A stretch of 597 bases of DNA from the NCBI RefSeq assembly GCF_003334255.1, contig NZ_QOWU01000216.1. The stretch is one strand, 5' to 3'. Of the stretch, positions 1-597 are shown in pieces. The position numbers and the translations under genes were made by a program. Numbering within the stretch: the stretch's first letter is position 1; each line of letters opens with the position of its first letter. The DNA comes from Escherichia coli. Lineage in GTDB: Bacteria; Pseudomonadota; Gammaproteobacteria; Enterobacterales; Enterobacteriaceae. The notes under the pieces were generated by a model, which saw only the letters and a program-made list of their open reading frames with translations, was not told the origin of the DNA and did no database searches.

Positions 1-21
1 AATTGTAAACCAGAATGCCAG

Positions 22-48
22 GAAAAAACAAAACCCGCCGAAGCGGGT
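22..48 (-). terminator. Rho-independent terminator of the hok mRNA
   Basis: Minus-strand reading is ACCCGC-TTCG-GCGGGT followed directly by TTTTGTTTTTT: a 6-bp GC-rich stem (33-38 pairing 43-48), a UUCG tetraloop and a U-tract. It sits 69 nt downstream of the hok stop. There is no T-run on the plus-strand side, so it looks unidirectional. Confidence 0.85.
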
Positions 49-49
49 T

Positions 50-68
50 AAGTGCGGGTGCGTTGAGG
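50..68 (-). promoter_or_regulatory. 3' fold-back (fbi-like) element of the hok mRNA, complementary to the 5' leader element at 431-448
   Basis: Plus-strand 50-68 AAGTGCGGGTGCGTTGAGG versus the reverse complement of 431-448, GACTGCGGGTGCTTGAGG: an 8-nt plus 6-nt perfect match separated by one extra G, with one further mismatch at the edge. In the mRNA this lets the extreme 5' end pair with the region just upstream of the terminator, as the tac/fbi interaction does in R1 hok mRNA (established knowledge; the assignment here is inference). Confidence 0.5.
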
Positions 69-117
69 ATGCCTGACACATCAGAGGTGGCGAGGGATTT
101 CTCCCCCGCCAGGTCTC

Positions 118-273
118 TTACTCCTCAGGTTCGTAAGCTGTGAAGACAGCGACCTCCGTCTGGCCGGTTCGGATTCGTACCTCGCAGAGGTCTTTCCTCG
201 TTACCAGTGCCGTCACTATGACGGTTAAACAGATGACGATCAGGGCGATTAACATCGCCTTTTGCTGCTTCAT
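118..273 (-). CDS. hokD: Hok/Gef family type I toxin (small membrane-depolarising peptide), HokD/RelF-like, 51 aa
   Basis: Minus-strand ORF from ATG (complement of 271-273) to TAA (complement of 118-120), 156 nt. Translation: MKQQKAMLIALIVICLTVIVTALVTRKDLCEVRIRTGQTEVAVFTAYEPEE. It has a single hydrophobic transmembrane segment and a conserved Cys-containing TRKDLCEV core, as in Hok/Gef proteins. It matches my memory of E. coli HokD (RelF) and is close to, but distinct from, HokC (Gef). Paralogue naming is from recollection and the context differs from K-12 hokD. An AGGAG Shine-Dalgarno lies 9 nt upstream. Confidence 0.93.
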   Translation of the reverse strand: MKQQKAMLIALIVICLTVIVTALVTRKDLCEVRIRTGQTEVAVFTAYEPEE

Positions 274-329
274 AGCCTGCTTCTCCTTGACCTTTCGGTC
301 CGTAAGAGGCTAATCTCTATGTGTCGCAT
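270..329 (-). CDS. mok-like leader ORF (19 codons), translationally coupled to hok through an ATGA start/stop overlap
   Basis: Minus-strand ATG (complement of 327-329) is preceded by GAGG with an 8-nt spacer. Translation: MRHIEISLLRTERSRRSRL, ending in a TGA (complement of 270-272) that overlaps the hok ATG. It starts 56 nt upstream of hok, at the position where mok starts in hok/sok loci, but in the +1 frame. The frame in phase with hok is closed by a TAG 13 codons upstream of the hok ATG. Whether the peptide is made is untested. Confidence 0.45.
   Translation of the reverse strand: MRHIEISLLRTERSRRSRL
283..287 (-). promoter_or_regulatory. Shine-Dalgarno sequence of hok (AGGAG)
   Basis: Minus-strand AAGGAGAAGCAGGCT-ATG; AGGAG with a 9-nt spacer to the hok ATG. 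Confidence 0.7.
287..316 (+). promoter_or_regulatory. Candidate sigma70 promoter for the Sok-like antisense RNA
   Basis: Plus-strand TTGACC (287-292), 18-bp spacer, TAATCT (311-316); predicted start near 322-324. The -35 overlaps the hok Shine-Dalgarno on the opposite strand. The -10 matches consensus only at T1, A2 and T6, so this rests largely on position. Confidence 0.45.
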
Positions 330-380
330 AGATATGGCCTCAGATTAATGTTAAGCGTCTTGCAGGACGCGTAATGTTAA
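322..380 (+). ncRNA. sok: Sok-like antisense RNA antitoxin (type I), boundaries approximate
   Basis: A plus-strand transcript from about 322 would be exactly antisense to the Shine-Dalgarno and AUG of the mok-like ORF (complement of 327-341). It ends in a stem-loop, GCGTC-TTGCAG-GACGC (355-370), extendable to an imperfect stem over 345-380. Size (about 55-65 nt) and position relative to the mok start fit known Sok RNAs. The 3' end is uncertain (378 to about 392) because no clean U-tract follows the stem. Confidence 0.5.
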
Positions 381-393
381 CTGGGGCTTTTCT

Positions 394-430
394 CTATCTG
401 CCTTTTGGTGTTCATGCCTGAGACAGATAG
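394..430 (-). repeat. Inverted repeat (hairpin) in the hok mRNA 5' leader
   Basis: Plus-strand CTATCTG (394-400) and CAGATAG (424-430) are perfect reverse complements, extendable to about 10 bp with one G-U pair, with a 17-nt loop. It lies immediately 3' of the leader element at 431-448 in the mRNA and may belong to the leader's regulatory fold. Confidence 0.4.
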
Positions 431-448
431 CCTCAAGCACCCGCAGTC
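431..448 (-). promoter_or_regulatory. 5' leader (tac-like) element of the hok mRNA, complementary to the 3' element at 50-68
   Basis: See the feature at 50-68. It sits directly downstream of the predicted -10, that is, at the extreme 5' end of the predicted transcript. Confidence 0.5.
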
Positions 449-476
449 ATTCTACTTAACTAAGATTTCCCCGCAA
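449..476 (-). promoter_or_regulatory. Candidate sigma70 promoter of the hok mRNA
   Basis: Minus-strand TTGCGG (complement of 471-476), 16-bp spacer, TAGAAT (complement of 449-454), with an A-rich stretch upstream. The predicted start near 441-443 gives a leader of about 113 nt to the mok-like AUG and about 169 nt to the hok AUG, similar to R1 hok mRNA. The complementary 5' element begins right at the predicted start. Confidence 0.4.
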
Positions 477-597
477 ACCGTTTTTGTCCGGCACAGTAAA
501 TATCCAACTAAACCAATGGCGTTCGCTGTATTTACCGCCAGTATTCAATGCACATGACCGCCATGAACACCCCTAAAAAAAGGGCATTTATATATCC

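Follow-up and report, generated by a model that had tools for sequence, protein, structure and literature searches.

The window analyzed here, a 597-nt stretch of Escherichia coli DNA, contains a complete and intact hokD-type hok/mok/sok type I toxin–antitoxin (TA) module on its minus strand. The first-pass annotation had placed an intact, self-contained hok/sok locus at 22–476, and all of its elements were found at those positions on that strand. These limits enclose a single transcription unit of ~420 nt together with its promoter, although the conserved module reaches slightly further, to ~488–490. Apart from the Sok gene, which is a candidate, each family feature that can be tested in silico was found: the Hok open reading frame (ORF), a match to the leader, the helix between the translational activator element (tac) and the fold-back inhibitory element (fbi), the alternative pairings and a mok frame with its own Shine–Dalgarno (SD) sequence. 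The locus is ordinary except for one property, an unusually short mok reading frame.

The toxin gene hok (273..118, minus strand) encodes a 51-aa product that reads MKQQKAMLIALIVICLTVIVTALVTRKDLCEVRIRTGQTEVAVFTAYEPEE. The protein matched the Pfam family PF01848 (Hok/Gef, HOK_GEF) over the full 42-position model with an E value of 1.3e-23, and alignment showed the coding region to be identical to that of K-12 hokD (relF), as is the encoded protein. RefSeq likewise names this ORF hokD (WP_000813254.1). The HokD peptide has been reported to be toxic upon expression or overexpression (bioRxiv 10.1101/2025.08.07.668861). The hok SD, AGGAG (287..283, minus strand), lies 9 nt 5' of the hok AUG and within the mok ORF, and it is kept in every aligned locus, K-12 hokD included.

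A separate observation concerns the C-terminal end of the toxin. The Tyr47 codon of hok falls within a UACG motif (132..135, minus strand), with the A at window position 134 predicted to be unpaired (P = 0.97). The same Tyr motif near the Hok C terminus is conserved in R1 hok, hokC and hokW. In K-12, 6% of hokD mRNA is reported to undergo A-to-I editing by TadA at UACG, converting Tyr to Cys (PMC12214031); the edited mRNA has the same coding sequence as the window.

Upstream of hok, a leader was identified at 442..271 (minus strand) by the Rfam covariance search that the first-pass annotation had proposed. Family RF01794 matched over its full length (model positions 1–157 of 157) with 106.7 bits against a gathering score of 59 and an E value of 2.9e-25. 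RF01794 bears the name 'sok antitoxin', yet the strand that it matches is the hok-sense one, between the 5' end of the mRNA (GGGUGCUUGAGG) and the hok AUG. It really models the hok leader, of which Sok is the exact antisense, and its matches give the wrong strand for the antitoxin.

The regulatory boxes of the hok mRNA, all on the minus strand, could be placed along the predicted transcript. The 5' end, assigned from the start of the RF01794 match and from the folds, coincides with tac, GGGUGCUUGAGG (442..431). It is followed by an anti-tac element, GUCUCAGGCAU (424..414), which forms a metastable 5' hairpin with tac in the predicted fold of nascent or truncated RNA, and by the upstream complementary box (ucb), AAGCCCC (389..383), predicted to have the mok SD as its partner while the mRNA is closed and tac once it is open. 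The mok SD, GAGG (341..338), lies 8 nt 5' of the mok AUG and is invariant in an alignment with R1-type hok, hokC and hokW. The downstream complementary box (dcb), GCCUC (310..306), is the partner of the mok SD when the mRNA is open and translatable, according to the Rfam consensus structure. Downstream of hok, the 3' untranslated region (UTR) contains a hairpin, GGCGGGGGAGAAAUCCCUCGCC (110..89), with a 10-bp stem in the minimum-energy folds and found in all aligned relatives, and then fbi, CCUCAACGCACCC (68..56), which is complementary to tac with one bulged C in the minimum-energy fold. The unit closes with an intrinsic terminator at 49..22, consisting of a stem-loop (49..32) of seven pairs, five of them G–C, then TTGTTTTTTC, with the U tract running to ~22. 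A terminator scan returned this as the sole terminator-like site in the window.

Folding of the complete 419-nt hok mRNA gave −175.1 kcal/mol compared to −124.6 ± 5.9 kcal/mol for shuffled sequences (z = −8.5). The full-length minimum-energy fold holds both the tac/fbi helix, a closing helix of 12 bp between mRNA positions 1–12 and 375–387, and the pairing of ucb with the mok SD. The isolated leader, folded alone, forms tac/ucb, and the minimum of the 3'-truncated mRNA shows an 11-bp tac/anti-tac hairpin. These predictions parallel the model established for plasmid R1, in which the full-length mRNA is closed by tac/fbi with ucb covering the mok SD; 3' trimming yields an open form with tac/ucb and mok SD/dcb pairing, and a metastable tac hairpin guards the nascent RNA (PMC9841398).

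Conservation of the pairs was assessed in an alignment of 89 related loci, comprising IMG/VR contigs together with Rac, a P1-like phage and an R1-type plasmid; a small hairpin around the mok AUG was left out of the counts, as a 2-nt indel misaligns its columns. The tac and fbi pairs were retained in 86–89 of the 89 relatives and the ucb pairs in 88–89, while all five mok-SD/dcb pairs were retained in every one. All 11 tac/anti-tac pairs were retained in at least 87 relatives, including switches between G–U and G–C and between U–A and U–G. Two-sided pair changes were few, an example being pair 15–47, which changes from A–U to G–C in 15 sequences.

A putative hok promoter (477..449, minus strand) was assigned by homology and comprises a −10 element TAGAAT (454..449) and a weak −35 element TTTGCG (477..472) separated by a 17-nt spacer. 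The gap of 6 nt between this −10 and the predicted start point, G442, equals that of the R1-type locus (TATGAT, 6 nt, GGCGC), hokC and hokW. The R1 −10 positions have been validated via mutagenesis (PMC9841398). On the plus strand, a candidate Sok promoter (287..316) was recognized, again by homology, with −35 TTGACC (287..292), an 18-nt spacer and −10 TAATCT (311..316). The −35 and the spacing match those of K-12 sokC, and the −10 is homologous to the sokW −10, TAACCT, replacement of which abolished antitoxin activity (PMC8621323). Homology to the RefSeq sokC noncoding RNA and to the 71-nt sokW points to a Sok RNA of ~71–75 nt, from 323 to ~393–397 (plus strand). In the predicted fold of this RNA (−29.8 kcal/mol, z = −4.4), 13 nt at the 5' end stay single-stranded as a tail complementary to the start region of mok; a long terminator hairpin and then UUUUCUCU follow. 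The module is completed by this predicted antisense gene with its own putative promoter and terminator.

The mok ORF (329..270, minus strand) comprises 19 codons plus a stop, translated as MRHIEISLLRTERSRRSRL; it was missing from the ORF list, which had a floor of 20 aa. Its UGA (272..270) overlaps the hok AUG (273..271) as AUGA, and the frame spans the hok SD. Relatives usually have mok frames of 68–70 codons; relative to the loci of Sp5, Rac and PPompW and the P1-like ones, the window shows a 2-nt deletion immediately 3' of the mok AUG. Among close relatives (near-full-length phage matches ~88–98% identical), mok occurs in all three frames relative to hok. The frame classes were counted in 109 viral contigs (IMG/VR) carrying this hok gene. 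In 81 of these, mok is in frame with hok and 70 aa long, as are mokW and K-12 mokC, with one copy cut to 56 aa by a premature stop. It lies in the +1 frame with 68 aa in four (as annotated in phage Rac) and has the short 19-codon form in 18, and six contigs have no leader. The 18 short-mok copies represent 11 distinct sequences, and hok is intact in all 18. A 44-nt probe centered on the deletion, which gives no megablast seed on alleles with the extra 2 nt, matched exactly in 798 of 5,426 complete E. coli genomes (14.7%), including CFT073 and ST131 (sequence type 131) strains. At this locus RefSeq annotates the hokD coding sequence only; mok and Sok are omitted.

Many complete E. coli genomes contain the 597 bases of the window with 100% identity, among them EC958 and JJ1886 (ST131) and enterotoxigenic E. 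coli H10407. In 1,849 of the 5,426 complete E. coli genomes, at least one place covers 80% or more of the window, and carrier genomes have a median of two places with related copies and up to ten. In EC958 and H10407 the locus lies in a lambdoid prophage, preceded by genes for cro/cI-like proteins, YdaT, replication and DUF977 and followed by those for DUF968 (ydfU), RusA (rusA) and the Q antiterminator, co-oriented with these prophage genes. The hokD-type module is thus phage-borne (nin region of a lambdoid Qin/Rac-like prophage) and not a core chromosomal gene. No insertion sequence (IS) or transposase is annotated within 8 kb of the locus in these two genomes, both of which have the identical 597 bases; this bears out the earlier statement that no insertion sequence lies nearby. 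An apparently intact, IS-free hokD homolog had already been reported in the adherent-invasive E. coli strain NRG857c (PMC7232551). The earlier assignment to a known family and not to a novel system stands: hok/sok is well known, and intact prophage copies of hokD are common and already catalogued.

Comparison with the Qin hokD of K-12 clarified the relation between the two forms. Beyond the identical coding sequence, the hok SD, 3' UTR hairpin, fbi and terminator of K-12 hokD are nearly identical to those of the window (2–3 mismatches), and both loci occupy the same prophage position upstream of ydfU and a Q-like gene. K-12 hokD shares only window ~22..287, however; relBE stands where the window has the hok promoter, tac, ucb, mok and the Sok gene. 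Because the K-12 homology stops at ~287, with relE and relB upstream, the window represents the unrearranged form of hokD. The statement in the first-pass annotation that the K-12 hok loci are all inactivated agrees with the literature, which attributes the inactivation of the five loci to IS elements, point mutations or rearrangement (PMC7232551, PMC12214031), and with the alignment, in which K-12 hokD is without leader, mok and sok.

The closest studied relative is hokW-sokW of Sakai prophage Sp5, a Stx2 phage (PMC8621323), with ~91% nucleotide identity over 46..488. HokW shares 47 of 51 residues with the Hok encoded here, and the boxes and the Sok promoter position are alike. In contrast to the 19-codon mok of the window, which is in another frame, mokW is a 70-aa ORF in frame with hokW; the terminator and the prophage position also differ. 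hokW-sokW has been proven experimentally to be a type I TA system that depends partly on RNase III and Hfq (PMC8621323). The hok/sok (parB) locus of plasmid R1 is too diverged from the window for blastn, yet it has the same architecture and −10 to +1 spacing and shares the tac/fbi, ucb/mok SD, tac/ucb and mok SD/dcb pairings and the metastable 5' hairpin. R1 differs in its mok, which has 70 codons and lies in the +1 frame (PMC9841398), in a Sok hairpin shorter than that of the window, and in being plasmid-borne with a demonstrated function in post-segregational killing (PSK). For K-12 hokC/mokC/sokC (gef), the leader and Hok are closely related to those of the window and the Sok −35, TTGACC, is common to both; mokC, unlike the mok of the window, is in frame with hokC (69 aa), and hokC occupies a core chromosomal site and not a prophage. 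An IS186 copy in K-12 ends 20 bp past the hokC stop codon, and the hokC locus has been reported as IS-inactivated (PMC7232551, PMC12214031).

The presence, order and predicted pairing of these elements, and their identity or homology to characterized loci, are direct observations. On this basis, and by analogy, the locus most likely functions as the plasmid R1 paradigm does, a reading to which we assign a probability of roughly 0.7. A weak constitutive promoter would drive a hok mRNA of ~420 nt from 442 to ~22 (minus strand), with both end points inferred. In the nascent RNA, tac would pair with anti-tac; once the RNA is complete, tac would pair with the 3' fbi while ucb covers the mok SD, yielding a message that should be stable, untranslatable and blind to Sok. 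Slow 3' trimming, if processing occurs as in R1, would remove fbi and allow refolding to tac/ucb and the mok-SD/dcb hairpin. In this open form, Sok (323 to ~395, plus strand), presumed to be short-lived, would bind the mok start region, and RNase III would destroy the duplex. Should Sok be gone, ribosomes would read the 19-codon mok across the hok SD to the overlapping UGA, terminate there and initiate Hok, which would then insert into the inner membrane and kill or arrest the cell, provided that the protein is toxic in its native context.

By analogy, the most probable role would resemble that of hokW-sokW, in which loss of Sok upon prophage induction aids lysis and phage release. After RecA-dependent induction of that prophage, sokW vanishes and HokW is made; when the locus is deleted, growth arrest sets in later and only half as much phage is released (PMC8621323). 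The co-orientation of the window locus with the early-right operon suggests that antiterminated transcription during induction could read through and disturb the convergent Sok promoter. Classic PSK is less likely than such an induction-linked role. An intact locus does not by itself imply PSK, as the chromosomal hokA, hokB and hokC are intact yet inactive in PSK.

Several results weigh against an R1-like function or against its individual parts. A consensus promoter scan of the window reported 0 sites, both promoters being sub-threshold, weak matches; for that reason the hok and Sok promoters were assigned by homology only (R1, sokC and sokW). Folded without constraints, the 3'-truncated mRNA does not reach the canonical open form at its energy minimum. 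In favor of the model, the canonical structure with mok SD/dcb, obtained by constrained folding, lies only 1.1 kcal/mol above that minimum. At the protein level, the NCBIfam Hok subfamily model NF007279 scores HokD at 48.5 bits, below its 73-bit cut-off, and the HokA model NF007290 also scores it under the curated cut-off; the 'HokD' label given by the Prokaryotic Genome Annotation Pipeline must come from a rule other than these two models. Among the tested hok loci that we found, none has a mok that ends exactly at the hok AUG. Since hokW lies elsewhere in its prophage, the induction-linked behavior may not transfer to the window. In addition, intact chromosomal hokA, hokB and hokC showed no PSK and no response to rifampicin (Pedersen & Gerdes 1999, per bioRxiv 10.1101/2025.08.07.668861).

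The last of these results leads to the first of the two main alternatives, that the locus is structurally intact and physiologically silent, with no PSK and no response to transcription arrest, and is carried as a neutral prophage passenger. On this reading hok is transcribed, yet control is so tight, or activation so poor, that killing never follows. Such silence would fit the weak promoter matches, and with several related copies per genome (median two, up to ten) other Sok RNAs might cross-protect the cell. We nevertheless consider it unlikely. The alternative pairings are preserved across the 89 relatives, and each of the 18 short-mok contigs has an intact hok. Activity has been shown for the 91%-identical hokW-sokW in single copy at its native place in the prophage (PMC8621323), and R1 hok kills from a single chromosomal copy, with the K-12 chromosomal Sok RNAs giving no cross-protection (PMC9841398).

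The second main alternative turns on the short mok. Alignment of the leader to functional loci, suggested earlier as a check for disruption, revealed all boxes in place together with the 2-nt deletion that shortens mok. Were this deletion a disabling lesion, ribosomes would terminate without reinitiating, Hok would never be made and the locus would be a decaying remnant. A long mok is indeed the majority form among relatives (of the 109 contigs, 81 have it in frame with 70 aa, one of these cut to 56 aa, and four have it in the +1 frame with 68 aa), and the deletion also takes 2 nt from the region of the Sok 5' tail. In R1, however, mok translation is required up to the hok translation start and not beyond, mok stops placed further downstream are harmless, and 19 codons of mok precede the hok start (PMC9841398). 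Because R1 needs mok translation only to the hok start, the short mok would be sufficient by this rule; its frame continues past the hok SD as far as the AUGA overlap. The allele is also present in 14.7% of complete E. coli genomes, CFT073 and ST131 strains among them, and spans 11 distinct sequence backgrounds, each of which has an intact hok. A disabling effect of the deletion therefore appears improbable.

We instead lean, if by a modest degree, toward the 19-codon mok with its AUGA overlap being a functional, natural 'minimal mok'. AUGA overlaps are a standard arrangement for translational coupling, and by analogy coupling of mok to hok through termination and reinitiation at the AUGA is plausible here. 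If this is correct, the three mok frames found among relatives amount to a natural experiment indicating that ribosomes need only reach the hok start and that coupling can shift from overlap read-through to termination–reinitiation with the toxin kept. The short-mok allele is a convenient natural variant for studying mok–hok translational coupling. Literature searches on sokD, mokD or hokD-sokD returned nothing relevant, and those on anti-Sok and CFT073 returned nothing bearing on the short-mok allele.

That the module serves mainly as an abortive-infection defense, in which shut-off of host transcription by an infecting phage depletes Sok and frees Hok, is very improbable, as hok genes are not enriched near defense systems, the only prophage hok/sok tested (hokW-sokW) helps its own phage and does not block others, and no feature in the window bears on a defense function.

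The discovery value of the locus is low, given that hok/sok is a textbook type I system and the 91%-identical hokW-sokW has already been characterized. Its practical value lies in annotation, with mok and Sok absent from RefSeq and a probably spurious ORF called nearby. The latter is a 59-aa hypothetical protein, WP_001112736.1 (window 1..76, plus strand), opposite the hok 3' UTR and terminator. Other plus-strand ORFs antisense to hok (140..313, 57 aa, among others) were unsupported and were treated as chance.

Other Rfam candidates in the window were considered and rejected. One sub-threshold match, with 27.2 bits and E = 7e-4, was to isrK and extends over the 3' UTR hairpin of hok, fbi and the terminator (28..109, minus strand). 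Derivation of isrK from a hok 3' end was rejected, as no isrK match was obtained in a Salmonella prophage that retains a degraded piece of hok and the Gifsy-1 isrK lies directly downstream of Q beside the C4 antisense RNA and not in the nin region. The likeness is that of a generic hairpin plus terminator. Weak matches to ceN48, CRISPR-DR28 and rsmX, which overlap hairpins or the terminator and score far under the gathering scores, were attributed to chance.

A hokD-type module with ~90% identity to the window was also found on P1-like phage-plasmids, which are ~90–120 kb in size and mostly non-mobilizable. The homology spans exactly fbi to the transcription start and tac (window 56..445), and the promoter and terminator differ; from this pattern, the core of the hok mRNA appears to be mobile as a cassette. 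Two IMG/VR viral contigs have a second type of leaderless hokD junction, unlike the relBE type, with different upstream sequence; the break again falls immediately 5' of the hok SD (ACAGGAGAAGCAGG).

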